Part shown: positions 17,371 through 50,210 of the stretch, piece after piece
How the letters are laid out: the number at the start of each line of letters is the position of its first letter
Numbering within the stretch: the stretch's first letter is position 1
Source: an uncultured Poribacteria bacterium
GTDB lineage: Bacteria > Poribacteria > WGA-4E > WGA-3G
Assembly: GCA_958296135.2 (NCBI GenBank)
Contig: CATQHZ020000002.1
Span: forward strand, 32,001 to 96,000
Length of the DNA: 64,000 bases
Direction of reading: 5' to 3'
The notes under the pieces: model-generated
What the model was told of the DNA's origin: nothing
Database searches by the model: none
What the model saw: only the letters and a program-made list of their open reading frames with translations
Position numbers and translations under genes: made by a program

Positions 17371-17647
17371 ATTCTATTATTTTGTCAAATGTATCTTTAG
17401 TGAGCCAAGGTGAATTACAGCAACCGCAATTTGTTCCTTTTAATATAAGGAGAAGTTTTATTATGCCAGCAGTTTGAAGATCTGTTATCTTCAAAGATCC
17501 AGCACTTGTAACTTCATATTCTTTTTTCTGACGCTTAAGTTCAAGAATTCTTTGATCGATATTTTCAACCTTCTGCAATTCGTAATGAAAGCCGTCAATT
17601 AGTTCGTGCCAGTTATCTTCAATTTTTATAAATAGTTTCTTACTCAT
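17345..17647 (-). CDS. Hypothetical protein
   Basis: 100 aa ORF overlapping its neighbours; AGGAG RBS. Confidence 0.6.
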   Translation of the reverse strand: MSKKLFIKIEDNWHELIDGFHYELQKVENIDQRILELKRQKKEYEVTSAGSLKITDLQTAGIIKLLLILKGTNCGCCNSPWLTKDTFDKIIEFARNYNNE

Positions 17648-17789
17648 TTTTATTTTTCTCCTTCAAGTTCTTTATCGCCTTCTTCACTTTTCTGTGATCA
17701 TAATAAGCTAATGCTGCTCCAACTAAAGAGCTAATGATACCCACTACAATAAGTATCGCAAACGACCAATAAACTAATTTTAGTGACAT
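17640..17789 (-). CDS. Small single-pass membrane protein (49 aa)
   Basis: Not in the track; MSLKLVYWSFAILIVVGIISSLVGAALAYYDHRKVKK..., GGAGG RBS. Confidence 0.55.
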   Translation of the reverse strand: MSLKLVYWSFAILIVVGIISSLVGAALAYYDHRKVKKAIKNLKEKNKNE

Positions 17790-17814
17790 GATATGACCTC
17801 CATGATCCTTTGGA

Positions 17815-18060
17815 TCAATACGTATGACGTTTCATTGTTCCTTGAATACCTTGAGATTTTCTACGCTTATTTCGGCATTCTTCCCAATGAATCGCCCGTT
17901 GTAAATGATATATTACGCATTCGTTCTCGTAACATGGTAATACCTCATTCAAATATCTAACTCTATCAAGAGTTTCTTGAATTACATCTTCTACTCGAAG
18001 TCCCTTCCGTTCAACTTTATTCCAGTCAGTTAAGTTTTGTTCAGCAAGTTTTTTATTCAT
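17815..18060 (-). CDS. Tad1-like anti-defence signal-sponge protein
   Basis: GLRVEDVIQETLDRV..PCYENECVIYHLQRAIHW...R..R..QGIQGT follows the Tad1 C-terminal pattern (G..ED..DR..REN..AL.W..R...R....GT) as recalled; not verified by search. Confidence 0.6.
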   Translation of the reverse strand: MNKKLAEQNLTDWNKVERKGLRVEDVIQETLDRVRYLNEVLPCYENECVIYHLQRAIHWEECRNKRRKSQGIQGTMKRHTY

Positions 18061-18478
18061 GATTCCACTCCAAATCGCCAGCGAACGTTAATCCTAGTTC
18101 TTTAGCCCATGCACGAGCATAGTTGTCTGCTATTTGAAATACGATTTCTTTTAGAGCCTCATTATAATTATCAACATCTTCTTTTGTGACTACTGTTCGG
18201 CCCCAAAGATTGTGACCAATGAAGATCAGCTTCACATGATCTTCCGACACTTTTTCAGCTTCGGAAACATGTCTATTATATTTACGATAGAAATTTTCAT
18301 GCATTCCAACTGTAATCTCGTTCCACGCGTCCTCGAACCCCAAACACCCAATTGAAAATTCCATTGATTTCGGATCTGTCATTTCCATGAACTCGATCCC
18401 GTCCGCCAAAAGTTGGTGAGTATTACTGCTTACCCAATCTTCGTTTATAGTTGGCAGATGTATAAATAAATCTGTCAT
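18053..18478 (-). CDS. Hypothetical protein
   Basis: 141 aa, AGGAG RBS, first gene behind a class II promoter. Confidence 0.65.
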   Translation of the reverse strand: MTDLFIHLPTINEDWVSSNTHQLLADGIEFMEMTDPKSMEFSIGCLGFEDAWNEITVGMHENFYRKYNRHVSEAEKVSEDHVKLIFIGHNLWGRTVVTKEDVDNYNEALKEIVFQIADNYARAWAKELGLTFAGDLEWNHE

Positions 18479-18501
18479 TATTTTGCTCCTTTTTGTTCCT
18501 T

Positions 18502-18544
18502 TATATTATTAAAATATTAAATTTTCAAGGGCATTTAAATCCAA
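18502..18544 (-). promoter_or_regulatory. Class II repeated promoter-like element, copy 1 of 5
   Basis: Minus strand TTGGATTTAAA-N5-TTGAAAATTTAATATTTTAATAATATA; same element at 41631, 47224, 53452 and 61661. Confidence 0.75.
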
Positions 18545-18971
18545 ATAAATAAATATTTAATATTGAAAATATATTTCTGGTCGTTTAAATCCAAGCGACC
18601 AATATTTTTTATTGAAATGTTTTCAATTGGCGATTTAAATCCAATAAAATGTTTCATTGAAAAAAGTTGAAAAATTTGTTTGCAAAAATTTGGGATCCTG
18701 GTTTATATTATACAAGTAAATGTTTTTCGTCGGATATATCAAGATTGAATTAGATATATTGGATTGATCTCAAAAAGTTGATTTAGGATTTTTACAGGCA
18801 AATTACTAACCGGATTAGGAGTCCCACGTTTTCAAATAGGATTATAACAACATCATCAATGGCAGATGTCTGATCCAACAGCCCATGTTATTGATCTTGA
18901 TTAACATCTTGATTGTAAGGATCATAACCCTGATGGATGTTAGACAATCGATCCCTGTTAACAAAAAATAA

Positions 18972-18995
18972 AGGACCGGAATCCGCTCCGGCCCT
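18972..18995 (-). terminator. GCGGAU-loop hairpin with U-tract closing the island
   Basis: AGGGCCGGA-GCGGAT-TCCGGTCCT followed by TTATTTTTTG on the minus strand. Confidence 0.65.
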
Positions 18996-19027
18996 CTACT
19001 CTGATCGTTATGATCAATCACTCCCTG

Positions 19028-19525
19028 TTAGCAGACTATGGTCACCTCCTGATCTTCGCCGAACAACACCTCCCTGATGATCATGCCAGCCATCTCGATA
19101 TGATAGCCAACAACCTTGTCAGACTCATAATAGCAACAGGGCTTGATGATCCCTAAGAACTGAAGCTGATTGATCGCACAATCCATCGCCTGATAATAAG
19201 TCGGGAGATTCGGATCGACCTTATCATCAAAGTCCTTGATTGTATATCGACATAACCGGTTAAGATCCCGATCATCCCTGTCGGTCGCCTTGATCAACTC
19301 CTCCTCTAGTTCGCGCGGGCTGACCAGATCGGATCCTAATTTAGTCACCGCCTGGACGATATATCCCACAAGATCGGTTGGATTTTTCACATCCCTGATC
19401 CAGTGGGGGAGCTCATCTATCAATGTTGCCGCTTGATCCGCTTTGATGATCGCATTGACGATCCGCTGATCTTCGGTCACAATTATCAACTCGTTGCTCT
19501 TGTGATCAAATATTGGGGTTGTCAT
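19028..19525 (-). CDS. Island family A, winged-helix-like protein
   Basis: C-terminal AINQLQFLGII..GYHIEMAGMIIREVLF is shared with 19608, 24319, 25904 and 29426. Confidence 0.6.
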   Translation of the reverse strand: MTTPIFDHKSNELIIVTEDQRIVNAIIKADQAATLIDELPHWIRDVKNPTDLVGYIVQAVTKLGSDLVSPRELEEELIKATDRDDRDLNRLCRYTIKDFDDKVDPNLPTYYQAMDCAINQLQFLGIIKPCCYYESDKVVGYHIEMAGMIIREVLFGEDQEVTIVC

Positions 19526-19607
19526 TATATTCTCCTGTCGGACTCTAAATTTTAGGGCTTGATTGGGAGAGGATCAACATCCGCGCTGATCCCCTCCGAC
19601 ATCATGA

Positions 19608-20141
19608 TTAGGCTCTTATTGTGACCTCTTGAGCTGTCCCAAAGGACAACTCCTTGAGGACACGGCCAGCTATCAGGAGCCTGACGCCTGTCGCCTCATA
19701 TCGATAGCGATCATGGGGGACAGGATCGGATAGCTCCTCAAAATCAGTCCTGATCAACTCCTGGATATCAAGCAAGGATAGTCCGTGCAAGACAGCCTGA
19801 TCGATCGGATCATCATAGATCTGAGGTTCCTCATATAGATCCTCAAGATCTTGGGACGCCAACTGGGATAGCAGATCCATTCGACCCTGATAGCGAGCCT
19901 CAAGATCAGCCTTGATCTCATCGACGGTGACAAGATCCTGATCGCTTTGGAGGACAACGCTTGTTAGAACGTCATGGAACAGCTCCGGATTGATCATCGC
20001 AGCCACCGTTGTGGGATCTGCAACATCCTCAATGTTTTTGACATCAAACTCATCAACGCTGTTGACGGTGACGAGTCTATTGCTGTTGGGAGGGCTGATC
20101 CTCATTTGAAAGAGAGGATCAACATTGATTTGATAAGACAT
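19608..20141 (-). CDS. Island family A, winged-helix-like protein
   Basis: Start moved to MSYQINVD (AGGAG RBS) because the longer track ORF runs through a promoter and hairpin; C-terminal AGRVLKELSFG. Confidence 0.65.
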   Translation of the reverse strand: MSYQINVDPLFQMRISPPNSNRLVTVNSVDEFDVKNIEDVADPTTVAAMINPELFHDVLTSVVLQSDQDLVTVDEIKADLEARYQGRMDLLSQLASQDLEDLYEEPQIYDDPIDQAVLHGLSLLDIQELIRTDFEELSDPVPHDRYRYEATGVRLLIAGRVLKELSFGTAQEVTIRA

Positions 20142-20251
20142 TATATACTCCTGCTTGATTGGATCTTTATGATCCTTTATTGATTTGTTTGATCTATCAT
20201 ATGTTGGATCAATTATTTGATCCGTCAGGAGAGCGACTCCTTGCCGCCCCC

Positions 20252-20301
20252 CTCCTATATATAATATAGGCGATCGACCGTTGATTTCAGATCGAACATC
20301 C
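20252..20301 (-). promoter_or_regulatory. Class I repeated promoter, copy 1 of 16
   Basis: Slightly diverged match to the 50-bp minus-strand consensus GG(A/T)TGTC(T/C)GATCTGATAAC-N14-TATATTATATATAGGAG. Confidence 0.75.
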
Positions 20302-20385
20302 AATTTTTTTTGGAGCGGACATCCGATCCAGCTGATTGTGATGAGAGGACCGGATCCGCCCGATCCCCTCAACAGCTTGATGATC

Positions 20386-20721
20386 TTAAGCAAGGACATG
20401 ATCGATCCAATTATGAACCCAGCGGACATATTGACGCCGCCAGACCTCAATACGCAATCCGTAATGGTTGCCAACGGTGGGATCCTGATCATATATGCGA
20501 CGCTGGGAGTTGATCGCAGACTCAATATCAGCTCTGAGTTTGCCCATAAACAACCAGACCTCAAGATCCGATCTGAACTTGATCACATATCGCAATCTGA
20601 ACAGATCTTTTTTTAGCGACCGGCAGCCGCTTTTGATCCACTGGTTATCAGACTCTATCATCTCGGTGTGGAGCTGCTCGATCTGCTCCTCGATCGGTTT
20701 GACAACATTTTTGATCGACAT
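20386..20721 (-). CDS. Island family C, small helical protein
   Basis: Start at MSIKNVVKP behind GAGGA; amphipathic helices resembling the two halves of 20838..21512. Confidence 0.6.
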   Translation of the reverse strand: MSIKNVVKPIEEQIEQLHTEMIESDNQWIKSGCRSLKKDLFRLRYVIKFRSDLEVWLFMGKLRADIESAINSQRRIYDQDPTVGNHYGLRIEVWRRQYVRWVHNWIDHVLA

Positions 20722-20837
20722 TATATAATCCTCTATTGGCTCAATTATTATTGAACCGTCTTGATTTGTGGGCAAGGGACCGGATCCGCTCCGATCCCAT
20801 CAGCCCGATTGATTTTTATTGAACAGCTTGTCTCAAT

Positions 20838-21512
20838 CTATAGATCCTCTTGTCCTGTAAGGACATCTTTGAGTCGACTTAGATCAGCAATCCGTTGGCG
20901 TTCTAGCTTCTCATCCGTCTGATCGCACTCCTTGATCCAATTGATCCGTTGATCGATAACAACGACTGCTCGATCTGCGTTCCGGTTCATATTGATGTCG
21001 GCGTACAATCTGCTTAGATCGTCAATCCGCGTCTGGACCGCCCAATCATCATAGCTGTCGGGATCTATCGCATCAAGATCCTGGATCAGCCCCTCATATC
21101 GAGCGTGGATTGCTCCAATATATTTATCGGTGAACATTTTTTTGATCTCCTCGTTGATTGTGACGACGGGACCGGATCCGCCCGATCCATCATCATCTGT
21201 TAGCAAGATCGATCTCGCCTTGTTAAGATTATCGATCCGCTCCTGTTTGTGCTCATCATCAGGGACCAGTCGCCTGATCGTCCTCAACAGTTGATCGACT
21301 CGCTCAACCGTCCTTGTCGGATTATCATCGACATGGACATGATATTGGATCCGCGACAGATCCTTGATTTGATCCCTTAGGATCCGGCATGTGAACAACG
21401 ACGGGACCGATGTTTGCTCGATCCCATCAAGATCGGTGTTGAGATCATCGATCATGACCTCAATTGCCTTATATGCTTGTCGGACATTTGGGCTAACAAA
21501 TTTGATTGTCAA
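20838..21512 (-). CDS. Island family C, two helical domains fused through a hairpin
   Basis: TTG start behind GAGGA; the internal GSGGSGP linker is the translated hairpin; a second RBS and ATG (MFTDKY) lie inside. Confidence 0.6.
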   Translation of the reverse strand: MTIKFVSPNVRQAYKAIEVMIDDLNTDLDGIEQTSVPSLFTCRILRDQIKDLSRIQYHVHVDDNPTRTVERVDQLLRTIRRLVPDDEHKQERIDNLNKARSILLTDDDGSGGSGPVVTINEEIKKMFTDKYIGAIHARYEGLIQDLDAIDPDSYDDWAVQTRIDDLSRLYADINMNRNADRAVVVIDQRINWIKECDQTDEKLERQRIADLSRLKDVLTGQEDL

Positions 21513-21622
21513 TTTTTTATCCTCATTGATTGGATCTTTATGATCCTTTATTGATTGATCTGATCTATCATATGTTGGATCAATTATTTGATCCGTCTGG
21601 GAGCCGCTCATTGCCGCCCCCC

Positions 21623-21672
21623 CTCCTATATATAATATAGGCGATCGGAGCCTGATATCAGATCAGACATCC
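21623..21672 (-). promoter_or_regulatory. Class I promoter, copy 2
   Basis: Matches the 50-bp consensus. Confidence 0.8.
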
Positions 21673-21779
21673 AAAAAAGTGGGATCAATTATTTGATCCA
21701 TCATTTGGGTTCAACATCTATCAGGCTGATTGTGACGAGAGGACCGGATCCGCCCGATCCCCTCAACAGCTTGATGATC

Positions 21780-22439
21780 TTAGGCATCGACCTGATAATG
21801 ATCTTTTAGGATCTGCTTGAGGCGGACTATATGATCCTCGCTGTCCTTAATTTGCTGCCGGATCATGTCCTCAACGCTCAATCCTGTTGTTTTAGCGACG
21901 ACATCATCGATTGTTGCTGTCACAACCTCTGCTGTTGCCGGTTTGACATCCTGAGCCGCGATTGGTTCAGGGACATCAACTCTGATCGCTTCGACAATCG
22001 CATGGATTGGAGCCTTGACATCAACTCTATGATCGCGAGCTTTGATCATGATGTTAAGGACCTCGACACAACGTGGAGTGCAATATCTCTCGCTGGCTTG
22101 ATCGAGCCCGCCATCAATATAGCTCCAAAGTCCGGTGACCGGATCTTTGTCGATCCAACCCCGTCCCATGCCCTTGTCACAACTCCAGATCCTTTTGACC
22201 ATCCGGAGCGGGCTGTTGGGATAGCCACCGGTCTGATTGACGACATGATCATGAACCGGATCGGTTAGCTGCTGCATATCATGGAGCAGATCGCGGAGAG
22301 CAATCGGGCTCCCGTCGCTCGGCATGGACGCCAACATTGCGATATGGACTGTCATCCGCTCTGTTGTTCTGCCGAGGATCAGCAGATCGCTATTATTGAG
22401 GACCGGAGACGCATTGGGTTCAAACATTTGATTGTTCAA
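21780..22439 (-). CDS. Island family B protein (winged-helix-like N-terminus, C-terminal coiled coil)
   Basis: GRGW motif shared with 25063; C-terminal LSVEDMIRQQIKDSEDHIVRLKQILKDHYQ shared with 22655. Confidence 0.6.
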   Translation of the reverse strand: MNNQMFEPNASPVLNNSDLLILGRTTERMTVHIAMLASMPSDGSPIALRDLLHDMQQLTDPVHDHVVNQTGGYPNSPLRMVKRIWSCDKGMGRGWIDKDPVTGLWSYIDGGLDQASERYCTPRCVEVLNIMIKARDHRVDVKAPIHAIVEAIRVDVPEPIAAQDVKPATAEVVTATIDDVVAKTTGLSVEDMIRQQIKDSEDHIVRLKQILKDHYQVDA

Positions 22440-22521
22440 TTTATTTCTCCTGTTGGATCTTATGATCCGTCTTGATTGAGTTGATCAATCATATTATTTT
22501 GGGGAGCCAACCCATCGTCGG

Positions 22522-22571
22522 CTCCTATATATAATATAACGCATTTGGCCTTGATATCAGATCAGACATCC
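22522..22571 (-). promoter_or_regulatory. Class I promoter, copy 3
   Basis: Consensus match, followed by the leader hairpin GGAGCCGACGATGGGTTGGCTCC. Confidence 0.8.
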
Positions 22572-22654
22572 AAAAAATTTTGGCTTTAGACATCCAACCA
22601 ATTTGATGTTGGGAGGGGACCGGCATCCGCGCTGATCCCCTCCGGCTGTTGATT

Positions 22655-23230
22655 TTAAGCAACATCCTGATAATGATTTTTTAAGATCTGCTCCAGTCGA
22701 TCAATATAATCATGCGAGCTTTGGATCTGCTGCCTGATTATAGACTCTAGACTCAGATCTGTTGTCGCCTTGACATCAGGCTTGACCTCTTTGTCCACAA
22801 CAATCGGATCAATGACCTCATCCTGCTCTTGATCGCTATCATTTTGATCCTTGACTTTGTTAAGGACATCCATAAATTGCTCCAGATCCACACCATGATA
22901 GCCCAAATTGCTTTCAACATAGCGTCGGATCTCAACAATGGACGCATCGGTCGCAATCCAGCGGCCAGATTGACATTTGATCCACTGTTTTGCGGACGAC
23001 CACACGGATGTGATCCCAGCGAACTGGTTCTTAGATTTATATTGAGTTTCAAGGAGGTGATTGATCGGGATCAACAGCTCCTGGATAGCAGTCCATATAT
23101 CAGATCTGAACGCTTGATTATCATTATTGATCATGATGTCCAAAGCAACAGCCTGCATCGCGGGACCGATCTTGGTGTGATTTAAGATCATCACATCGTC
23201 GGTTGTCAAAACTCTTTCAGGTGCGAACAT
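22655..23230 (-). CDS. Island family B protein
   Basis: C-terminal LSLESIIRQQIQSSHDYIDRLEQILKNHYQ is paralogous to 21780..22439. Confidence 0.65.
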   Translation of the reverse strand: MFAPERVLTTDDVMILNHTKIGPAMQAVALDIMINNDNQAFRSDIWTAIQELLIPINHLLETQYKSKNQFAGITSVWSSAKQWIKCQSGRWIATDASIVEIRRYVESNLGYHGVDLEQFMDVLNKVKDQNDSDQEQDEVIDPIVVDKEVKPDVKATTDLSLESIIRQQIQSSHDYIDRLEQILKNHYQDVA

Positions 23231-23321
23231 TTTATATACTCCATTAGCGGATAACTTACGCTATCCTATTTGATTGCGATGGGAGGACCGGCATCCGCGC
23301 CAGCCCTCCATCCGGTTAGCA

Positions 23322-23693
23322 TTAAATATCAATTTCGCCTGTCAATATTTCAACAACATAGCGCAGATCCGCCTCAAGATCCGGATATTGACCGTCATCC
23401 GTCCAGCGGCTATAGACGACGCTGATCAGCCTGATTGTCTTGACGCGATCCTTATAGACTGTCAAATGACTCAAGACGCGGCTCAGGACCTCAACCCGAT
23501 CGGTTAGCCGATCATAGACGCCCATCTGTTTGACCGTCATATCATCGATGTTGTCCGTCATGGGTTCCAGCTCGTCCTCGATCTGTTCCAATTGAGTGAT
23601 CATCGCACCGATGGCGAAGTCGACTCTAACGACAGGATCTTGTTGATCGATCAGATCCAAGATCGGCGTTTGATCTATCTTTGCGGTTGTCAT
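23322..23693 (-). CDS. Island family C helical protein
   Basis: End-to-end paralog of 23887..24252 (DQTPILD / DQTTILD, RVD.AI, QYPDL, ILTG). Confidence 0.7.
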   Translation of the reverse strand: MTTAKIDQTPILDLIDQQDPVVRVDFAIGAMITQLEQIEDELEPMTDNIDDMTVKQMGVYDRLTDRVEVLSRVLSHLTVYKDRVKTIRLISVVYSRWTDDGQYPDLEADLRYVVEILTGEIDI

Positions 23694-23755
23694 TTTTATT
23701 TATCCCCTTGTTGAGTTGATCCAAACAATTATTGGGAGCCGCTCATTGCCGCCCC

Positions 23756-23805
23756 CTCCTATATATAATATAACGCATTTGGCCTTGTTATCAGATCAGA
23801 CATCC
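23756..23805 (-). promoter_or_regulatory. Class I promoter, copy 4
   Basis: Consensus match. Confidence 0.8.
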
Positions 23806-23886
23806 AAAAAATTTTGGATCCAGACATCCGACAGCCTGATCGGTTGGGAGAGGACCGGCATCCGCGCCGATCCCCTCAACTGATTA

Positions 23887-24252
23887 TTAAATAATTTCAA
23901 AATTGCCTGTCAATATATCTCTGACATAATTGATGTCGAACACCAGATCCGGATATTGATCCTCCCAAAATCCGTAGGTTGTATCAATCATCTTGACGGT
24001 TTTATCAGGATCCTTATAGATCCTAATATAATTCAAGACTCGACTCAACATCTCAATCAGAGCTGTTTGAGCGTCTAGCGACCGTTGTAATCCTAGAGTC
24101 ATATCAGGATGCTTGTCGACAAACACCTCCAGATCGTTCTCTCTTTCCTCTAATGTTGGCTCTAACGTTCTGATGGCGAGATCGACTCTAAATTCCGCAT
24201 CTGTTTGCTCAAGCCGATCCAATATTGTTGTTTGATCTAATCTGACTGTCAT
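23887..24252 (-). CDS. Island family C helical protein
   Basis: Paralog of 23322..23693. Confidence 0.7.
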   Translation of the reverse strand: MTVRLDQTTILDRLEQTDAEFRVDLAIRTLEPTLEERENDLEVFVDKHPDMTLGLQRSLDAQTALIEMLSRVLNYIRIYKDPDKTVKMIDTTYGFWEDQYPDLVFDINYVRDILTGNFEII

Positions 24253-24318
24253 TTTTTATTTATCCTTATTGATTGTGGACAAGGGACCGGATCCGCTCCG
24301 ATCCCTATCCGGTTATTA

Positions 24319-24846
24319 TTAAGCATCCACGCCACGGTTGGCTCTAACGGTCGCCATATGATCGCTCCCAAACGCCAACTCCTTGAGGACTCTGCCCACA
24401 AGAGTCAGCTTATATTGGGCTTGATCAAGTTCGCAAGTCGGATCAACCTCATTGATTAGATTTATATCAACAAGCTGCTCCAGAGTGGATCCAATCGACT
24501 CCTCGATAACTCGCTCCATCATTGGGATGTCAAAAATATCGACCACCCGATCTAAGCTGTCAATCAGAGCCTCCTGATCGTCAAGATCAAGCCGTCCAAA
24601 CCGAGCCTCGACATCCGCGTCGATCTCGTCACGGCTAACAGGATCCTGATCGCTTTGGGCAATCGATCCCAGAACGATCTCATAAAGATCCTCTTGATTG
24701 CGAAGGGACTCAACACTCATGGGAGTGCAGACATCCTCAATATCCTCGATGTCGCTGACATCCAGATCTGTGACCGTAATATATCGACCTTGATCTGCGA
24801 TGACGACTGTCCTTGTCTCATTTTTGCGATCAAATTTGATTGCCAT
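24319..24846 (-). CDS. Island family A, winged-helix-like protein
   Basis: Start MAIKFD behind GGAG; shares QSDQD.V..DEI.AD.EAR and GRVLKEL.FG with 19608. Confidence 0.65.
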   Translation of the reverse strand: MAIKFDRKNETRTVVIADQGRYITVTDLDVSDIEDIEDVCTPMSVESLRNQEDLYEIVLGSIAQSDQDPVSRDEIDADVEARFGRLDLDDQEALIDSLDRVVDIFDIPMMERVIEESIGSTLEQLVDINLINEVDPTCELDQAQYKLTLVGRVLKELAFGSDHMATVRANRGVDA

Positions 24847-24909
24847 TATATACTCCATCTTGATTTGTTTGATCCAATCATCTCAATTTGGGAGCCAACC
24901 CATCGTCGG

Positions 24910-24959
24910 CTCCTATATATAATATAACGCATTTGGCCCTGTTATCAGATCAGACATCC
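24910..24959 (-). promoter_or_regulatory. Class I promoter, copy 5
   Basis: Consensus match with leader hairpin. Confidence 0.8.
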
Positions 24960-25062
24960 AAAAAAGTGGGATCAATTATTTGATCCATCATTTGGGTTCT
25001 GACATCCGACAGCCTGATTGTCTTGGAGAGGACCGGATCCGCCCGATCCCCTCCGATCATTG

Positions 25063-25581
25063 TTATTCAGATGCATACTTTGATATGATCTGCTCCAACT
25101 GCGTAAAGAGTTGATCAATCCTCTTTTTAGATTTCTCCATAGGACTGCCAGTACTGTCAATAACATCAACGGTTGATAGATCCTCTACTTCTTTTGTGAC
25201 AATTTCTTCAACAACATCGTTGTTATTATATCCATAATCGATGTTATCAAAGAACATCAACCCAAGATCGAAATCCGCTTCAATCTTAGCCTGTTCGATT
25301 GCTCCATCATTGAATGATAGCATGCCGTTAATACCATCGGTTTGACGATCGAGCCAACCCCTGCCGTTCCCATTATCATATCCATAGAACTGAGCAAGCG
25401 ATCCGATCCGATCGATCATACGACCAGTCAACGTGTTGTCGACTATCAACAGCTCCAGATTTGAATCTAAAACCGACTCGATTTCTCTCATCAATTCGCA
25501 CTTGCGGCGAACGCCATCCCGCTCTAGGATAGCGATCCATAACCACTTGGCGGCGTCTCTTTCTCTAACACGGATTGTCAT
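25063..25581 (-). CDS. Island family B protein
   Basis: GNGRGWLDR..DGAIEQA resembles GMGRGWIDK..DGGLDQA of 21780. Confidence 0.6.
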   Translation of the reverse strand: MTIRVRERDAAKWLWIAILERDGVRRKCELMREIESVLDSNLELLIVDNTLTGRMIDRIGSLAQFYGYDNGNGRGWLDRQTDGINGMLSFNDGAIEQAKIEADFDLGLMFFDNIDYGYNNNDVVEEIVTKEVEDLSTVDVIDSTGSPMEKSKKRIDQLFTQLEQIISKYASE

Positions 25582-25645
25582 TTTTTATTTATCCTCTTGT
25601 TGCGTTGATCCAATCATCTCAATTTGGGAACCAACCCATCGTCGG

Positions 25646-25695
25646 CTCCTATATATAATATAACGCATTTGGCCCTGTTATCAGATCGGACAACC
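25646..25695 (-). promoter_or_regulatory. Class I promoter, copy 6
   Basis: Consensus match. Confidence 0.8.
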
Positions 25696-25727
25696 AAAAA
25701 ATTTTGGTTCCGACATCCATCAGGACC

Positions 25728-25826
25728 TCAGACCTCATAACCGAGCAGATAAAGAAATATGCTCACAATGATAATGAAAGTCAAATAGATCCCGATATTC
25801 ATTAACAATCTTTTATATGTGTCCAT
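25728..25826 (-). CDS. 32-aa membrane peptide
   Basis: Not in the track; MDTYKRLLMNIGIYLTFIIIVSIFLYLLGYEV*, AAGG RBS. Confidence 0.45.
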   Translation of the reverse strand: MDTYKRLLMNIGIYLTFIIIVSIFLYLLGYEV

Positions 25827-25903
25827 AAAATCAACCTTTGATATGTCTCCATATGAACAAGAAAGGAGAGCTAGCATCCGCGCCAGCCCTCCTAACATCA
25901 ATC

Positions 25904-26356
25904 CTAGTTGTCAAACAGCAAATCCAATATGATGTGGCCAACCTTTGTCGGCTTGACTCCTTGTTTATTACAACGATGGATGACTCCCATAAGTATCATA
26001 TCATGGACGACATCATAAAACGCTCGATCGAACGCGCTTCTCCTTCGAACCTTGATATCTTGATCATCATCAGGCTGATATGGTTCAAACGATCTGGCGG
26101 TATAATGCTTTAGATCAGATATATGGATCCAATCAAGAGGTCCAAGTTGACTCAACTCCTCACATAGATGGCGTCGGAGCCTCAGATCCTTGAAATCCTT
26201 AAGGACCTCCACGTTGCATAAATATTGCAAATCATTGAACTGATCATCCGTCAATCCGCTGGCGGTGACCGTTTTGACATTATCATTGATTGTGATGGTT
26301 ATCGCTACGCTATGTTCAAATTGGACATCCATGCTATTGAACCTCCGATCCATCAA
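25904..26356 (-). CDS. Island family A, Mrr N-terminal-like winged-helix protein
   Basis: SAFDRAFYDVVHDMILMGVIHR..GVKPTKVGHIIL resembles the Mrr_N winged-helix pattern; start probably at MDVQF. Confidence 0.6.
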   Translation of the reverse strand: MMDRRFNSMDVQFEHSVAITITINDNVKTVTASGLTDDQFNDLQYLCNVEVLKDFKDLRLRRHLCEELSQLGPLDWIHISDLKHYTARSFEPYQPDDDQDIKVRRRSAFDRAFYDVVHDMILMGVIHRCNKQGVKPTKVGHIILDLLFDN

Positions 26357-26522
26357 AGCTGGCTTGAAAGCGGATCAAAACCAGCTTGAGTTGTTCTTCA
26401 AAAACATCCTGCTCGGCCTCTATCATATCAGACCAATGATCATGCTCCGGAACCCAGTCCTCAGGGCTTACATCAAGCTCCTGATTAGTCTCCACGTTAT
26501 CGGTTAACAATGCGGCTTTCAT
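26334..26522 (-). CDS. Small acidic protein
   Basis: 62 aa, AAGGAG RBS. Confidence 0.55.
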   Translation of the reverse strand: MKAALLTDNVETNQELDVSPEDWVPEHDHWSDMIEAEQDVFEEQLKLVLIRFQASFDGSEVQ

Positions 26523-26536
26523 ATTGTTCTCCTTGC

Positions 26537-26662
26537 CTATCTATTTATGTTGGATCTAAAAATCTGAGCAAAGACTCCAACTCCAATTACCATGATTTTG
26601 AACCCAACAGGAGCCTCTTGAAAGAGAAAGATTGCGATGGCGGCTGCTAAAGCTACAAACAT
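26537..26662 (-). CDS. 41-aa membrane peptide
   Basis: Not in the track; MFVALAAAIAIFLFQEAPVGFKIMVIGVGVFAQIFRSNINR*, GGAGG RBS. Confidence 0.5.
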   Translation of the reverse strand: MFVALAAAIAIFLFQEAPVGFKIMVIGVGVFAQIFRSNINR

Positions 26663-26744
26663 TGATTGATCCTCCAAAAAGACAGGTGGGGACCAAAGCC
26701 CCCACCTTGATTATGAGACATCCGCGTCTCATTAATGTTTGCAA

Positions 26745-27377
26745 CTAAGAGACCTGTTCTGCAACAACAGCCTTGACTCGTCCACGCCCATTCCGCTGGA
26801 CGCCAGACTCTTTCAAGTGAGCATTGATCGTCGCGGAGTTGATCCCTTTAAGCTCACCAATGGCGGATCCGCTCATTCCCTTTTCGGTGTGCAGATGACG
26901 CCATTCAGCCTTGTCATCATCGCTATGCTTCCGACGGTTGTTGCTCTTAGTCGGCAACAGCTTGACCGCATCCTCCCTCAACTTATCGAGTCCAGGAACA
27001 TCTGTCCCTCGCTCCTGAGCAAGGACACTCTTAACGATGTTGTCTTTGACGATCAGCCCCTTGAACTTGCCGTGGATCTTGAACGGGATAAGCTTAAGAT
27101 CCATGTTGTCGTTGACAAATTTTTCGTGGATGAACTTAACGACATCCGCTGCCAGCTCGACCTTGCGTCCACGAGCCTTCGGTTTGAGCAAGACAGCTGC
27201 CGACTCGGCGTTGAGCGGAGCAATCCATGTTTGCTTGTCCTCTTTCAACTTGAGGACCTTATTAAGTTCCGCCTGAACGTTGGCGGGGCTATCAGTCTCG
27301 GTGTTGAGTTCAATCGATCCGGCGGCAACGGTTCCGGCATCCGTCTGTTTGTAAAGATCAAATTTATATGCGGACAT
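26745..27377 (-). CDS. Family D HTH DNA-binding protein
   Basis: Start MSAYKF behind AAGGAG; C-terminal HTH GMSGSAIGELKGINSATINAHL; recent duplicate of 28432..29058. Confidence 0.75.
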   Translation of the reverse strand: MSAYKFDLYKQTDAGTVAAGSIELNTETDSPANVQAELNKVLKLKEDKQTWIAPLNAESAAVLLKPKARGRKVELAADVVKFIHEKFVNDNMDLKLIPFKIHGKFKGLIVKDNIVKSVLAQERGTDVPGLDKLREDAVKLLPTKSNNRRKHSDDDKAEWRHLHTEKGMSGSAIGELKGINSATINAHLKESGVQRNGRGRVKAVVAEQVS

Positions 27378-27461
27378 TATATAATCTCCTTGACGGCCTG
27401 ACACAATCAAGCCATAAATTAAAATTACAATCAATTTTTATAGGAGCCAACCCATCGTCGG

Positions 27462-27511
27462 CTCCTATATATAATATAGCCGACTCTTTGTTGTTATCAG
27501 ATCGGACAACC
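27462..27511 (-). promoter_or_regulatory. Class I promoter, copy 7
   Basis: Consensus match. Confidence 0.8.
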
Positions 27512-27597
27512 GATAAATTTTCGCTTTGGACAACCAACCGACCTTGGAGAGCTGACATCCGCGCCAGCTCTCCAATAATCGACATCCTGTCCTGATC

Positions 27598-28248
27598 TTA
27601 ATAATTATCAAGATCGCACTCCATCCATGCTTTGGGATTGAGCCTGCAAACTTGATTATATTTCGCATAAACAGCTTTGAGGAGTCCAACAACACCAATA
27701 ACGGTTTGCGGATCAACATTATGTTTTTGTGCGACCGGTTCAACCCATGCGGTATCGCCTTTTGCAGTCCGGAACCAAGAGTCCGGCGTCTGGTGAGCAA
27801 GGAACGACCGCCAGATATAATGGACCATAAAATCAATCAGCGGATATTCGACATAAACCCGATTGACATTTGCGATCCTGAACGGATGACTCATTTCGCC
27901 GCCGGCAGCCATGACTTGATCCAGATCAGGATCAGCCCACAACTCGCCCAGAAAGCCTTCAACATCGACCATTGGGATATCGATTACAATCCCGTTGGCC
28001 TCATTAATGACTTCAAGTTCGCAGAACTTAACGCTGACATCCATAGGATCGATCCCATAATCATCAACGATTTCGCCAAAGCCATCAAAGACTCCATTGA
28101 ACTCCATCCGGTTATCGGGCAACGCCAACCGACGGGGGAACCCAACCATAACCGAGAGCTTGTCGCTTGTCGCTTCAAAGACCTCGATTTTGGGAGTCAA
28201 TCTATAAGGAGGGACGATATCAACACCTTCAATCAAATTGCTTAACAT
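27598..28248 (-). CDS. Hypothetical protein
   Basis: Start at MLSNLIE behind AGGAG; the longer track ORF overlaps the promoter. Confidence 0.65.
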   Translation of the reverse strand: MLSNLIEGVDIVPPYRLTPKIEVFEATSDKLSVMVGFPRRLALPDNRMEFNGVFDGFGEIVDDYGIDPMDVSVKFCELEVINEANGIVIDIPMVDVEGFLGELWADPDLDQVMAAGGEMSHPFRIANVNRVYVEYPLIDFMVHYIWRSFLAHQTPDSWFRTAKGDTAWVEPVAQKHNVDPQTVIGVVGLLKAVYAKYNQVCRLNPKAWMECDLDNY

Positions 28249-28303
28249 TATATTGTCTCCTAAATTTACAATCATCCATAATTGGGAGCCAACCCATCGT
28301 CGG

Positions 28304-28354
28304 CTCCATATATATAATATAACGCATTTGGCCTTGTTATCAGATCGGACAACC
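28304..28354 (-). promoter_or_regulatory. Class I promoter, copy 8
   Basis: Consensus match. Confidence 0.8.
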
Positions 28355-28431
28355 AAAAAATTTTGGCTCCGACATCCAACCGGTGGGGACGAGCCGACAT
28401 CCGCGCCAGCTCGTCCTTTATTGTCATCCGG

Positions 28432-29058
28432 TTATGCATTTGTGACAACAGCCTTGACTCGTCCACGCCCATTCCGCTGGACGCCAGACTCTTTCAAGTG
28501 AGCATTGATCGTCGCGGAGTTGATTCCAAGCTCCTTACCGATCCTGAAGCCACTCCAACCGTCTTCGGTGTGCATGCGACGCCATTCAGCCTTGTCATCA
28601 TCGCTATACTTCCGACGATTGTTGCTCTGAGCCGGCAACAGCTTGACCGCTTGCTCCCTCAACTCATCGATGCCAGCAACATCCGTTCCACGTTCCTGAG
28701 CAAGGACACTCTTAACGATGTTGTCCTTAACCAACAGGCCCTCGAACTTATTATGAACCTTAAAGGGGATTACTTTAAGATCCACATTGTCGTTGACAAA
28801 TTTTTCGTGGATGAACTTAACGACATCCGGTTCCAGCTCGACTTTGCGTCCACCGACCTTCGGTTTGAGCAAAACTGCTGCTGTCTCGACGTTGAGTGCA
28901 GCAACATGATACTTTTTGTTCTTGTTCAGCTCGATCATATCATTAACAGCCGCCTGAACGATGGCGGGGCTATGAGTCTCGGTGCTAAGATCAACAGATC
29001 CGGCTGCGACCACTCCATCATCGTTGCGCTCATAAAGATCATATTTGACGGTTAACAT
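28432..29058 (-). CDS. Family D HTH DNA-binding protein
   Basis: Start MLTVKY; long stretches of nucleotide identity with 26745..27377. Confidence 0.75.
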   Translation of the reverse strand: MLTVKYDLYERNDDGVVAAGSVDLSTETHSPAIVQAAVNDMIELNKNKKYHVAALNVETAAVLLKPKVGGRKVELEPDVVKFIHEKFVNDNVDLKVIPFKVHNKFEGLLVKDNIVKSVLAQERGTDVAGIDELREQAVKLLPAQSNNRRKYSDDDKAEWRRMHTEDGWSGFRIGKELGINSATINAHLKESGVQRNGRGRVKAVVTNA

Positions 29059-29142
29059 TTTAAATGTCTCCTTGACGACTTGACGCATCAAGCCATAAAT
29101 TAAAATTACAATCAATTTTTATAGGAGCCAACCCATCGTCGG

Positions 29143-29192
29143 CTCCTATATATAATATAGCCGACTCTTTGTTGTTATCAGATCGGACAACC
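29143..29192 (-). promoter_or_regulatory. Class I promoter, copy 9
   Basis: Identical to copy 7. Confidence 0.8.
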
Positions 29193-29425
29193 GATAAATT
29201 TTCGCCCAAGACAACCAACCGACTGTGCGGTTTATTTTTTATCGCTGTTGCCAAGTACTACTATCCATATTGTTATTATATTCGCCATTACAGCGATTAA
29301 CATAAGATCTATGTTATCCATTTGATCATCCCTCCCTGATTGTGACTAATGGGACTGGATCCGCCCAACCCCATCAGCCCGTTCGCTCCATAAGATCCGA
29401 TCTAATGGATCAGATCTGATACGAT

Positions 29426-30058
29426 CTAATAGATATCTGTGATACCTTTAAGATCGAATACAATTGCCATCAGGACTCGTCCCGCCTTTGTGACAGAGAC
29501 TGCTCTTAGTTCTGTGTCATCCTGAACGCGGAGTCCATCAAAGAGCTGTTCCATGATAAACTGATCCATAAGGCTCCAGAACTGATATCCGACCACGTCT
29601 GGCATATGATCAATCTCGTCTGGACTCATTTGACCATCATCAAGGATGGCTTCCGCAGCCAATCCCCTCAGATTGTGTTGATCATCCTCATCATGACTCC
29701 AAACCAACTGGTTCAAGATATCTTGAGGGGTGACCACAATATTTTGATCAAATTCAACCGAGGATAGCAGAGCCTCTTCAAACTCAGACTCCCAAACTCC
29801 ATCGGGGTTGTCATCGATCATGCGTTTCATAGCAGCGACCGATATGTTAACGATCCGAGCTGCGTCCAAGACCTCATGATTGAAGCTGTTAACACGCCAC
29901 CGATCGGTTTTGGCAACATCTTCAACAAGATAATCTAAATATGTCCTTTCAACGGGATTGACATTGTGAACAACAACGGTTTTGATCGATCCATCATTGT
30001 TCTCGATTTTGATTTCAACACCCTGTCGCTCTTTGATCGACACATTTTTGATCGACAT
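29426..30058 (-). CDS. Island family A, winged-helix-like protein
   Basis: Start MSIKNVS; C-terminal VSVTKAGRVLMAIVF. Confidence 0.6.
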   Translation of the reverse strand: MSIKNVSIKERQGVEIKIENNDGSIKTVVVHNVNPVERTYLDYLVEDVAKTDRWRVNSFNHEVLDAARIVNISVAAMKRMIDDNPDGVWESEFEEALLSSVEFDQNIVVTPQDILNQLVWSHDEDDQHNLRGLAAEAILDDGQMSPDEIDHMPDVVGYQFWSLMDQFIMEQLFDGLRVQDDTELRAVSVTKAGRVLMAIVFDLKGITDIY

Positions 30059-30118
30059 TTTATATCTCCTCTTAATTGTCACAATCAATCAATTATTTGG
30101 GAGCCAACCCATCGTCGG

Positions 30119-30169
30119 CTCCATATATATAATATAGCCGACTCTTTGTTGTTATCAGATCAGACAACC
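30119..30169 (-). promoter_or_regulatory. Class I promoter, copy 10
   Basis: Consensus match. Confidence 0.8.
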
Positions 30170-30250
30170 GATAAATTTTCGCTTTGGACAACCAACCGAC
30201 CGTGAAGGGCTGACATCCGCGTCGGCCCTCCAATTTAGATCAAGATCTTG

Positions 30251-30661
30251 TTAATCCAATTTGTTTATGATATATTCAAGATCATCTTTTGTTATATTGT
30301 CTTTTCCAGATTTCTCCACGCCATCCAATCTGTTTTCAATATAATAGATCAACTCAGAACGAACATCCATCAGAGTCTCATAAAGCTTATCTTTAGCCTC
30401 GTTAAGCTTCTCCATAACAACGGCTTCCTCAAGCTCATACCACTCGATTGCGTCTGCCAACGTCGGCAGTTCCCAGACATCTGTTCTAGTGATATCGCAT
30501 ACAATCTCAGCCGCTTGTTTTGGACCATAATCAGCGTCCTGAGCCAACGGCGATTCAGGCTCCGCAAGAACCTCAATTGCTTGATGTTCCGCAACGATTT
30601 CATTATACTCTTGTTCAATCAACGCAACGTTGTATACTTCCTTATGAACTTGGCTTATCAT
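30251..30661 (-). CDS. Acidic helical hypothetical protein
   Basis: Start MISQVH coupled to the upstream stop (TAATG), GGAGGAG RBS. Confidence 0.6.
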   Translation of the reverse strand: MISQVHKEVYNVALIEQEYNEIVAEHQAIEVLAEPESPLAQDADYGPKQAAEIVCDITRTDVWELPTLADAIEWYELEEAVVMEKLNEAKDKLYETLMDVRSELIYYIENRLDGVEKSGKDNITKDDLEYIINKLD

Positions 30662-31056
30662 TATACTCCTCCCAAAAAGATGGTTGCCAACCAATCGACA
30701 ACTTTGATTGTGACATATGCTATTGTCGCCAAACCAATTACGGCTAGGCAGCCAGAACAACCATCATTATCATCATCGTCGTCGTCATCATTATTGTCAA
30801 CTTTTACTTTCAATTTGACGGTTGTATTTGTTCTAAGCACTTTGAGTGTGGTGACAAACGCCGCCTCGATAGCTTCAACATCATCAGGATCATGATCATC
30901 ATAGACTTCCTCAAAGATGTCCATAAAATCAGATCCAATATTTTCATAAACATCAGTTTGATCATCCGCGATCACGAACCTGAGTTCATAAGCTAATTCC
31001 TTTGGATCTACTCTATCGTCACCATTTAGATATGCGAACAAATTATACTTGATCAT
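30661..31056 (-). CDS. Acidic protein with poly-Asp tract and C-terminal membrane anchor
   Basis: NNDDDDDDDNDGCSGCLAVIGLATIAYVTI...; start MIKYNL. Confidence 0.6.
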   Translation of the reverse strand: MIKYNLFAYLNGDDRVDPKELAYELRFVIADDQTDVYENIGSDFMDIFEEVYDDHDPDDVEAIEAAFVTTLKVLRTNTTVKLKVKVDNNDDDDDDDNDGCSGCLAVIGLATIAYVTIKVVDWLATIFLGGV

Positions 31057-31118
31057 TTTATGGTCTCCAATAACATTAAATTTACAATCATTTTTTATAG
31101 GAACCAACCCAGCGTTGG

Positions 31119-31168
31119 CTCCTATATATAATATAGCCGACTCTTTGCTGTTATCAGATCAGACAACC
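31119..31168 (-). promoter_or_regulatory. Class I promoter, copy 11
   Basis: Consensus match. Confidence 0.8.
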
Positions 31169-31189
31169 GATAAATTTTTCGCTTGGCGA

Positions 31190-31540
31190 TCAATCCGACC
31201 GATTTGTTTTGACATCTGGGTTAAGTTCGATCATATGATTTACCCAGTTTACAAGTTCATCAATATCGGTTTTGGGTTCATATAAACTTTCGCTGATCTC
31301 CATATATGTCCATATGAATTTCTCCATAAGGTTACCCTGCGGATTTGGTCTTATGTTCTTTAATGTCCACAAATATAACCGGTATGGCATCCATTTAATC
31401 ATATGGCGAAACCGGTTACCAAACCGTGGTTCTTCAGACCCTTTCAACAAATTGCGGGAATCATTAAAAACTTTCCACTCTTCGATATCGATCAACGCTG
31501 CTCCATAATCTTCTTCAAGACTGTCTTTTAATTCAATCAT
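31190..31540 (-). CDS. Hypothetical protein
   Basis: 116 aa, AAGGAG RBS. Confidence 0.6.
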   Translation of the reverse strand: MIELKDSLEEDYGAALIDIEEWKVFNDSRNLLKGSEEPRFGNRFRHMIKWMPYRLYLWTLKNIRPNPQGNLMEKFIWTYMEISESLYEPKTDIDELVNWVNHMIELNPDVKTNRSD

Positions 31541-31551
31541 GATAGCTCCTT

Positions 31552-32595: not shown

Positions 32596-32660
32596 TTTTT
32601 TATGCTCCCATTGAACGGAGACCTTTCGGTTCCATATTTAATTAAAATTTAAGTTCATTG

Positions 32661-32711
32661 TCCTTTATATATAATATAGGCGATTTGGAGCGGTTATCAG
32701 ATCAGACAACC
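32661..32711 (-). promoter_or_regulatory. Class I promoter, copy 12 (upstream of a sigma factor)
   Basis: Consensus match. Confidence 0.8.
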
Positions 32712-32756
32712 GATAAATTTTCGCCCAAGACAACCGCTCTGGCTGATGGTTTGGAT

Positions 32757-50158: not shown

Positions 50159-50210
50159 AACATGGCTCCCACATGAGTTCGGGAGGGGAATTGAACCCCT
50201 CCCAATGTTA

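Follow-up and report, generated by a model that had tools for sequence, protein, structure and literature searches.

Why should a block of small phage genes carry, just past almost every stop codon, a hairpin whose stem changes and whose loop does not? This question is raised by a stretch of 64,000 nucleotides from the assembly of an uncultured Poribacteria bacterium (GCA_958296135.2, contig CATQHZ020000002.1), here called the window, which comprises bases 32001–96000 of a 143,886-bp contig (36.8% G+C) that is a large phage. Between 18.9 and 31.2 kb of the window (whose coordinates are used throughout unless another contig or locus is named) lies an island of ~20 small, mostly acidic open reading frames (ORFs), with a G+C content of 0.42–0.47 as against ~0.35. 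A preliminary description of this DNA had counted about 17 hairpins with a near-invariant GCGGAU loop in the island, and had read them as a protein-recognised element, a sponge for a host RNA-binding protein of the CsrA/RsmA type or a cassette recombination signal. Our analysis makes it very probable that the hairpin is a selected stem-loop element of the sense strand with a sequence-specific loop. The evidence for this is presented first, followed by the position of the copies, their exchange between genes and with the host chromosome, and their possible role.

On the plus strand the loop reads ATCCGC, and this hexamer occurs 60 times in the window where 22.4 ± 4.6 occurrences are expected, a count reached in none of 100 shuffles. 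The excess is that of the plus strand within the island, where ~30 occurrences lie between 18981 and 30220. On the messenger RNA (mRNA) strand, which is the minus strand, 17 hairpins with the loop GCGGAU and stems of 7–16 bp were found between 18965 and 30232, in agreement with the earlier count, and the three copies that had been given as examples are located at 20342–20371, 27544–27575 and 26713–26732. Summed over the 17 stems, there are 163 Watson–Crick pairs, 31 G·U pairs, two A·C pairs and no other mismatches, in line with the earlier statement that mismatches resolve as G·U on the minus strand. Because the opposite strand would carry 31 mismatches in place of the G·U pairs, the pairing holds on the mRNA strand only. 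The sense strand also folds better than the antisense strand, by 7.4–15 kcal/mol, in five of the six copies compared (the sixth is a tie), and the predicted energies of 15 hairpins range from −15.5 to −22.6 kcal/mol. Bulged bases are absent from 16 of the 17 copies, and the feet of the stems are variable.

In an ungapped alignment of the 17 copies (A1), the six loop columns are the only invariant ones. The 13-bp helix of this alignment has 86% of its cells paired, compared with 63% after shuffling, and changes on both sides of the stem occur at 12 of its 13 pairs. Covariation, which had been proposed as a check of the element, gave a score of 0.759 versus 0.329 for shuffled alignments (none of 500 shuffles reached the observed value), and registers slid along the helix scored at most 0.23. 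Part of this score comes from one-pair register shifts beside the loop, and in one respect it is conservative, because the pairing in A1 is lowered by the two copies whose loop has 7 nt (AGCGGAU). The earlier statement that the stems differ in sequence and keep their pairing therefore stands, with the qualification that most of them are not unrelated sequences but variations on a pair of related themes, GGAGGGGAUCGG(C) and GGAG(A/G)GCUGGC; near-identical copies include those at 20342–20371, 21736–21765 and 25025–25054.

On the phage contig, long-stemmed hairpins with this loop are also confined to the island. Over the whole contig, 33 hairpins with a hexaloop and a stem of at least 10 bp are present on the minus strand, 12 of which have the loop GCGGAT, all within the island; the plus strand has 17 hairpins of this kind, and GCGGAT is the loop of none. 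When the island was simulated with a Markov model (n = 200), no loop occurred twice. A covariance model built from the 17 copies and run with filters off found nothing at E < 0.1 outside 18965–31129, and hairpins outside the island near 50189 and 51942 have other loops, as had been reported. An Rfam search of 17000–33000 with E values up to 5 returned a single match, a chance small nucleolar RNA at E 3.4.

Position of the hairpins relative to genes, promoters and terminators

All copies face the same way, and 14 of the 17 start 8–25 nt past a stop codon, which confirms the description of one hairpin after almost every island gene; two others start at 39 and 46 nt, and one lies in frame inside an ORF. 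What comes next after the hairpin is a promoter-like element in ten cases, the next ORF in five (at a distance of ~20–54 nt and with no promoter between), a canonical terminator in one and the end of the island in one. Followed in the direction of transcription along the minus strand, the series opens at 30203–30232 with a 12-bp hairpin (one A·C pair; 39.2 bits in the covariance model) that begins 18 nt after the stop of gene 30661–30251 and has a promoter copy next. The 15-bp copy at 29344–29379 (36.6 bits) stands 46 nt past the stop of gene 30058–29426, and those at 28387–28416 (12 bp) and 27544–27575 (13 bp) stand 15 nt past gene 29088–28432, a member of family F1, and 22 nt past gene 28275–27598, respectively. 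The F1 paralogue 27377–26745 is followed after 12 nt by a 7-bp hairpin with a wholly different stem (26713–26732), directly after which comes a canonical terminator-like hairpin with the loop CUUU and a U-tract (26684–26707). Two 12-bp copies follow, at 25864–25893 (10 nt after the stop of gene 26353–25904, with a partly T-rich tail) and at 25025–25054 (8 nt after gene 25581–25063). A 9-bp stem with the 7-nt loop AGCGGAU is found at 24282–24306, 12 nt after gene 24858–24319; an ATG lies 29 nt downstream of it, with no promoter between. The next four copies are those at 23848–23877 (12 bp, 9 nt after gene 24252–23887), 23282–23309 (11 bp, 12 nt after gene 23693–23322 and 51 nt before the next ATG), 22612–22643 (13 bp with one A·C pair, 11 nt after gene 23230–22655 of family F3) and 21736–21765 (12 bp, 14 nt after gene 22427–21780). 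The other 7-nt loop, again AGCGGAU, closes an 8-bp stem at 20776–20798, 39 nt after the stop at 20838 and 54 nt before the next ATG. The 12-bp copy at 20342–20371 comes 14 nt after gene 20721–20386, and the 13-bp copy at 19566–19597 comes 10 nt after gene 20141–19608, with the next ATG 40 nt downstream. The last copy, at the end of the island (18965–19002), has 16 bp, and its 3′ arm runs into a U-tract, so that it resembles a terminator.

The copy at 21169–21188 has 7 bp (more if a 1-nt bulge is allowed) and lies in frame inside ORF 21611–20838; no stop codon comes before it, and ~20 nt downstream there is an ATG that has a ribosome-binding site. It is read as GSGGSGP, a peptide similar to a flexible linker that joins the paralogous ORFs 21512–21150 and 21146–20838 (window 21150–21200). 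By its sequence, the ORF looks like two fused cassettes. Copies inside genes occur as well, all on the minus strand. The short one previously noted at ~24608 is present at 24608–24623 (5 bp, in gene 24858–24319; 13.4 bits), and a stronger, AU-rich one was found at ~25258–25293 in gene 25581–25063, with 11 contiguous pairs, or up to 15 with one mismatch; the covariance model gives it 18.3 bits at 25257–25294, though it was outside the training set. Two weak copies, at 26248–26265 (6 bp with a mismatch) and 30959–30974 (5 bp), may be due to chance.

Only the last copy had been credited with a U-tract. It does have a full one, the tail of the copy at 25864–25893 is partial, and the other 15 of the 17 have none. 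The hairpins thus share the G+C-rich stem of intrinsic terminators and, in 15 of 17 cases, lack the U-tract, and ordinary terminators composed of a hairpin and a U-tract are present elsewhere in the phage and in the host. As judged from these features, the GCGGAU hairpin is not a classical intrinsic terminator, as had been proposed, because 15 of 17 copies lack the tract, one copy is followed by a separate terminator and five copies lie within gene pairs that have no promoter between them. The motif AAUCA lies within 22 nt downstream of 10 of the 17 copies, where 1.1 would be expected. No conserved AUCCGC that could serve as a kissing or pseudoknot partner of the loop was found nearby, and on reading, the loops of the 5′ hairpins described below are not complementary to it.

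The promoter-like element consists of an A/T tract, the box TTGG(A/T)TGTC and CTGATA-16-TATATT, followed by AGGAG, and a second TTGGATGTC-like box is often seen ~30 nt further upstream. The contig carries 16 copies, of which 11 are in the island; the other five are at 32678, 34468, 42645, 48400 and 51884. From its sigma-70-like sequence we infer the promoter activity of this element and the start sites. Each of the 11 island copies has a stable hairpin at the inferred +1 position (−14.7 to −18.9 kcal/mol), which is of one of two sequence types, A or B. Type B is found at 31098–31170 (the first island copy, with no GCGGAU hairpin upstream), 30099–30171, 29122–29194, 28284–28356, 27441–27513, 25625–25697, 24889–24961 (with an extra upstream hairpin, GGATCAAATAATTGATCC) and 22501–22573, and type A at 23735–23807, 21602–21674 (with an extra upstream hairpin) and 20231–20303 (with a diverged box), all on the minus strand. 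In the five copies outside the island the 5′ hairpin reaches 0 to −7.7 kcal/mol and no GCGGAU hairpin lies upstream, and the copy at 51884 is preceded by a hairpin with a similar G-rich stem and a different loop. Where a GCGGAU hairpin precedes a promoter copy, its foot lies 66–99 nt upstream of the −10 box in eight cases and 185–202 nt upstream in the other two. Island messages would thus be bracketed by a 5′-terminal hairpin and a 3′ hairpin, a layout that protects bacterial mRNAs from 5′-end-dependent and 3′-exonucleolytic decay.

Module exchange and the host-chromosome copy

Comparison of related genes and related hairpins shows that the loop is more strongly constrained than the stem. The two F1 paralogues, which are 73% identical in protein sequence, are followed by the stems GGACGAGCUGGC and AUGAGAC with an identical loop. 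Conversely, the 3′ modules of the copies at 20342–20371 and 21736–21765 are 91% identical from the stop codon on, and the genes upstream of them (20721–20386 and 22427–21780) are unrelated. The regions from hairpin to start codon are mosaic: the extra hairpin GGATCAAATAATTGATCC, present or absent, is combined with a 5′ hairpin of type A or B in all four possible ways, and three box variants and several spacer variants are associated in mixed fashion. Modules must have recombined to give such a pattern, but a dedicated recombinase is not required for it. Protein identities within the paralogous families of the island are 73%, 44%, 35% and 27%, and with values of this kind the paralogues are, by sequence divergence, old.

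The element was also sought in host genomes, as had been suggested, with a divided outcome: the host chromosome contains one diverged copy, and among the other genomes of the host family (n = 111; 60 candidates scored per genome) the covariance model detected no hairpin cluster. The main chromosome of the same assembly has 5.01 Mb and 54.4% G+C. At ~C1:385,960–387,000, between an aminotransferase and a dehydrogenase gene, it contains two ORFs homologous to family F3, one of which matches island gene 23230–22655 with a tblastn E value of 1e-7 and 25% identity. Ten nucleotides after the stop lies the hairpin GGCGGGCUAGA-GCGGAU-UUUAGUCCGCC, which has two G·U pairs and no A·C pair; its stem shares little with the phage stems, and its loop is identical. 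Past the hairpin come the boxes TTGGATGTCT-N25-TATATT, a combination present once in the 5-Mb chromosome. The surrounding insert (G000:C1 ~385,700–387,500; locus L071, 2299–4006) is 2 kb long, has a lower G+C content, is flanked by the aminotransferase and Zn-dehydrogenase genes and also carries a 180-amino-acid ORFan. The element is not enriched in the chromosome, in which the covariance model gives two hits of at least 30 bits, and a census of chromosomal hexaloops found GCGGAT six times and its complement seven times (rank 25 of 1556).

A search of 159 genomes of the order detected the F3 domain in just two, this one and another of the same genus. Here the host has two copies and the phage has three strong ones and a weak match (E 2e-4), and the relative has, at the syntenic locus, a single F3 gene with a different hairpin. 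The host-chromosome cassette and the genus-restricted F3 family tie the phage to this host genus and indicate that gene, hairpin and promoter travel together. For the N-terminal domain of F3 (22655–23230, 21780–22427, 25063–25581 and host locus L071) a confident model was obtained (predicted local distance difference test score, pLDDT, 88.9), for which a fold search returned weak winged-helix matches only (E ≥ 0.095); on this model, the domain could be a DNA- or RNA-binding module.

Relatives of the phage and its hairpins were sought in several further ways. Megablast of the island and of the 40–60 kb region against phage records gave no match, nor did tblastn of two island proteins against phages. 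The hairpin pattern had no match in viral contigs, and no relative was found for the sigma-like protein or the terminase in viral contigs, for the terminase in genome contigs, or for aligned F1 homologues in either collection. In metagenome contigs, the hairpin pattern (restricted to two stem types) matched 46 loci, which were treated as chance or coding matches because they were single matches on contigs with 52–76% GC, none of them phage-like. Relatives of the portal protein are present in 19 of the 111 host-family genomes, at just 25–30% identity, and homologues of one island protein were found in five metagenome assemblies (51–81% identity), one of them on a 52.7-kb contig. The literature matches listed dealt with transfer RNA (tRNA) and the like, and no GCGGAU-loop hairpin element was described in them.

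Possible roles of the hairpin

The reading we favour, tentatively and at somewhat short of an even chance, is that the hairpin would be the 3′-untranslated-region element of mobile expression cassettes, forming or protecting mRNA 3′ ends through a reader of its loop, with gene shuffling as a by-product. A full cassette would begin with a sigma-70-like promoter whose transcript starts in a stable 5′ hairpin, continue with one or two ORFs and end, 8–25 nt past the stop codon, with a stem of 12–16 bp and the invariant loop. In the mRNA, once polymerase has read through or the transcript has been processed, the hairpin would block 3′ exonucleases, and partial insulation of the next promoter may be a further effect; the loop would be the docking site of a putative trans-acting factor, which the copy in the host chromosome predicts to be encoded by the host. 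Since the modules recur between unrelated genes, they provide homology for recombination, which would shuffle the cassettes and would have allowed one to move into the host chromosome. The structure, its strand, the loop constraint, the position, the lack of U-tracts, the mosaicism and the host copy are shown by the data above; a function in stabilising or processing messages, and a factor that reads the loop, are proposed. Non-terminator 3′ stabilisers of this general kind include the RNase III-processed ends of T7 early mRNAs, the repetitive extragenic palindromic (REP) elements of Escherichia coli, the 3′ inverted repeats of chloroplast genes and the histone stem-loop with its protein SLBP. 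Like the island hairpins, they are stem-loops just past many genes of one programme that fix or protect RNA 3′ ends, and the histone stem-loop is a conserved structure read by a dedicated protein. The likeness is incomplete: typical RNase III sites are longer and less regular than the island stems, and what is conserved in REP elements is the stem together with a flanking tetranucleotide rather than the loop.

The idea of a protein-recognised element, voiced in the preliminary description, holds as regards structure, loop specificity and the mRNA strand and fits all tests run; recognition by a protein is probable. A more specific proposal, which is possible but which we regard as doubtful, is that the hexaloop would be the address tag of a putative RNA-binding protein marking the 3′ ends of cassette messages, in a lineage without CsrA, Hfq and ProQ and with cassettes that move between phage and host, and would thus be a counterpart of the histone stem-loop and SLBP that is coupled to mobility. 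Several observations weigh against a 3′-end element with a loop reader. No RNA-binding Pfam family was recognised among 120 phage proteins, 20 island or neighbouring proteins and 4 proteins of the giant ORFs, and comparison with PHROGs gave no useful reader candidate for 17 of 18 island proteins. The ten hairpins located 66–202 nt upstream of a promoter copy would suit a pure attenuator or insulator equally well, and the constraint on the loop might in principle operate in single-stranded DNA instead. Finally, the element is known solely from one phage and one host locus.

The main rival is a purely transcriptional attenuator or insulator, at which the polymerase would pause or partly terminate, so that read-through would neither occlude the next strong promoter nor over-express the genes downstream, the loop being conserved for hairpin nucleation or pausing without any factor to read it. 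The closest precedent is the promoter-early stem-loop (PeSL), in which a Gn/Cn stem-loop containing G–T pairs accompanies a strong sigma-70-like promoter that is A/T-rich upstream; PeSLs are reported to be concentrated beside ORFans in plastic regions, to act as terminators in reporter tests and to mediate shuffling (Arbiol et al. 2010, PMC2839356; Comeau et al. 2014, PMC4122927). The island likewise has repeated modules of a promoter and a G-rich/C-rich stem-loop with G·U pairs in an ORFan-rich plastic region, with signs of gene shuffling by recombination between modules, and the promoter part is recognisable by sequence as CTGATA-16-TATATT with its A/T tract, in 11 island and 16 contig copies. 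In favour of attenuation, a promoter copy comes after ten of the 17 hairpins, a similar G-rich stem with another loop stands before the copy at 51884 outside the island, the last hairpin merges with a U-tract, and PeSL stem-loops are reported to cut reporter expression in the manner of a strong terminator (PMC2839356). However, the PeSL stem-loop lies in or next to the promoter, whereas the island hairpin is anchored to the upstream stop codon and is followed by no promoter in 7 of 17 cases; the PeSL loop is not conserved, being given as Gn-loop-Cn, whereas that of the island is invariant; and PeSL stem-loops behaved as terminators, whereas 15 of 17 island hairpins have no U-tract of the type that other phage and host terminators have. 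Nor is this phage T4-like, as it has a DnaE-type polymerase and its own sigma factors. Stop-codon anchoring, promoter-less copies, the lack of U-tracts and the invariant loop are the reasons for which we consider the island system to resemble the PeSL without being a member of it. Attenuation also fits poorly with the five copies within promoter-less gene pairs, the at least one strong copy inside a gene and the separate canonical terminator after one copy, and pausing alone does not explain an invariant 6-nt loop on completely different stems; we regard it as unlikely, yet as an explanation to be taken seriously. The hairpin might instead be a translational operator, whose loop would bind an RNA-binding repressor or activator of the phage or the host that controls translation of the next gene, in the manner of RegA or the coat proteins of RNA phages. 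Its invariant loop, its position ~20–54 nt upstream of the next start codon in five cases and the excess of AAUCA downstream would be in keeping with this, but the ribosome-binding site and start codon are neither included in nor masked by the hairpins, and because a promoter intervenes in 10 of 17 cases, the main transcript of the next gene would lack the hairpin altogether. The spacing, moreover, is anchored to the upstream stop (8–25 nt in 14 of 17) and not to the downstream start (29–359 nt in the 15 copies measured), and an operator is accordingly improbable.

Explanations at the DNA level start from the layout of one ORF plus one hairpin. A recombination or nicking site acting in single-stranded DNA, as in integron attC sites, the ends of IS200/IS605 elements or rolling-circle origins, would be a hairpin extruded from the sense DNA strand, its loop recognised so that cassettes are excised, inserted or copied, which would account for the mosaic modules and for a cassette in the host chromosome between housekeeping genes. 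G·T pairs are tolerated in DNA hairpins, and the origins used by HUH nucleases are likewise marked by a loop that stays constant while the stems covary. As in an integron, the island is an array of unrelated small genes, each followed by a folded imperfect palindrome, but attC sites differ in having conserved R′/R′′ core sites at the stem feet and extrahelical bases, both of which are absent here, where the loop and not the feet of the stem is conserved and most cassettes carry their own promoter. The proposal of a cassette recombination signal is borne out in part, by the mosaic modules and the diverged host cassette, but the corresponding enzymes were not found. Tyrosine recombinases, including the Xer type (PF00589), had no match on either replicon or in the assembly as a whole, whereas 14 of 14 control genomes matched, which is either a peculiarity of the assembly or a miss of the first-look filter; the Y1 transposase of the HUH group (PF01797), which serves REP/RAYT and IS200/IS605 elements, is absent from the phage contig, with two copies in the host chromosome; and Pfam scans of the 120, 20 and 4 phage proteins showed no Rep, relaxase or integrase. 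The mosaicism could equally well come from ordinary homologous recombination between repeats. A single-stranded-DNA site seems as improbable as an operator. A selfish or passive palindromic repeat, similar to REP elements or to miniature inverted-repeat transposable elements (MITEs), would merely have spread in the island with a loop that has yet to diverge; several near-identical copies and the confinement to one phage island and one host locus are what such a repeat would give. It is nevertheless improbable, as compensated changes are seen at every position of the stems and none in the loop of the 17 copies or the host copy, the placement relative to stop codons is regular, the orientation is single and the phage contig has no transposase. 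Least credible of all is the distributed sponge or target of CsrA/RsmA. A high-affinity CsrA/RsmE site is described as an ANGGAX hexaloop on a stem in which the first A is not replaceable (PMC4005645), and the island loop has the same geometry, with GGA at positions 3–5 of a hexaloop directly on its stem, in many copies as in sponge RNAs. Its first base is G in 17 of 17 copies, however, and the copies are spread over ~11 kb of mRNA and not gathered in one small RNA. The suggested search of the host for csrA was negative: PF02599 was not found in the phage contig, the host's own assembly or any of the 112 host-family genomes (112/112), whereas control genomes matched, and Hfq and ProQ were likewise not found. 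The 14 type-IX-secretion sorting domains of the host would point to the Bacteroidota group, which typically lacks these chaperones. The sponge fails because CsrA is absent and the loop lacks the required first A, and the host-chromosome cassette and the genus-restricted family argue against a CsrA-bearing lineage as the real host. Hairpin promoters of the N4 type were considered separately and rejected, as no RNA polymerase family was recognised in the phage proteins scanned, the giant ORFs are fibre-like and have no DxDGD motif, and the template strand would carry 31 A·C mismatches.

The phage, its island and its host

The contig encodes phage structural proteins (portal, protease, terminase, tape-measure and capsid), replication proteins (DnaE-type polymerase, primase-helicase, sliding clamp and SSB), a class II ribonucleotide reductase, DnaK and DnaJ, at least six DNA methyltransferases including one of the Dam type (D12), three sigma-like proteins, nine tRNAs and one transfer-messenger RNA (tmRNA). 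The minus strand carries 157 of its 169 called ORFs. None of 18 island proteins matched a Pfam family, and comparison with PHROGs gave nothing useful for 17 of the 18. The island is probably an early or host-takeover region. The host-takeover module of SPO1 is reportedly a compact block of ~20–26 small early genes of unknown function with many strong promoters; the island is likewise a compact block of small, promoter-rich genes, in a phage of a different host phylum, and we know of no invariant-loop 3′ hairpins described for SPO1.

The island is also rich in GATC. Window 18900–31200 has 283 sites in 12.3 kb, 128 of them in 20001–24000, where 15.5 are expected; the density is ~6.6/kb in the rest of the phage and 1.31/kb in the host chromosome, which is depleted. 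Island coding sequence has 208 sites versus 140.5 ± 7 on shuffling of synonymous codons, intergenic sequence has 72 in 3.3 kb, and the −35 box of every promoter copy contains one. The gene for the Dam-type methylase is at 47552–48364. Four genes of the queuosine pathway, for QueD-like, FolE, QueC and radical-SAM (QueE-like) proteins (window 37046–37795; locus L067 1205–1756, 3512–4192 and 9938–10642), suggest, by sequence similarity, that the phage DNA carries 7-deazaguanine modifications; a transglycosylase was not recognised alongside them among the phage proteins scanned.

The tmRNA gene (contig C2 113,571–113,916; L067 18071–18416) specifies the tag EDNFEYALAA, and its 3′ end is identical to that of the host ssrA gene at 29 of 30 bases. 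This 30-nt match between phage and host was considered as a spacer of clustered regularly interspaced short palindromic repeats (CRISPR) or as an attachment site and rejected, as it is the conserved 3′ end of the tmRNA gene. Two giant ORFs, at C2 125,876–140,839 (4987 amino acids, with nine Ig-like He_PIG repeats) and 119,091–125,864 (2257 amino acids, T/S-rich, with no family match), probably encode fibres or adhesins. The protein encoded at 48461–50158 has a C-terminal domain resembling type-IX-secretion sorting signals, of which the host has 14, and its DNA is 67–78% similar to the corresponding parts of several host genes. Contigs from four runs of the single source sample show breaks at repeats, some microdiversity and no joint at any hairpin. 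At 24459–24523, a second haplotype with eight substitutions in 65 nt is present in two of the four runs, and loose ends at 30764–30799, in the poly-Asp repeat of gene 31056–30661, suggest length variation.

If the loop is a protein address, the island would be a natural experiment, replicated 17-fold, for identifying a new RNA-binding factor, in a lineage in which none of the three classical global RNA chaperones was found, and it would show how the mRNAs of rapidly evolving accessory genes in a large phage are armoured at their two ends. The concept of the modular regulatory cassette, developed for T4-type phages, would be extended to an unrelated phage, to anchoring at the 3′ ends of genes and to traffic between phage and host chromosome. 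The pair of 5′ and 3′ hairpins could also serve as portable expression parts for a host group that is poorly tractable.

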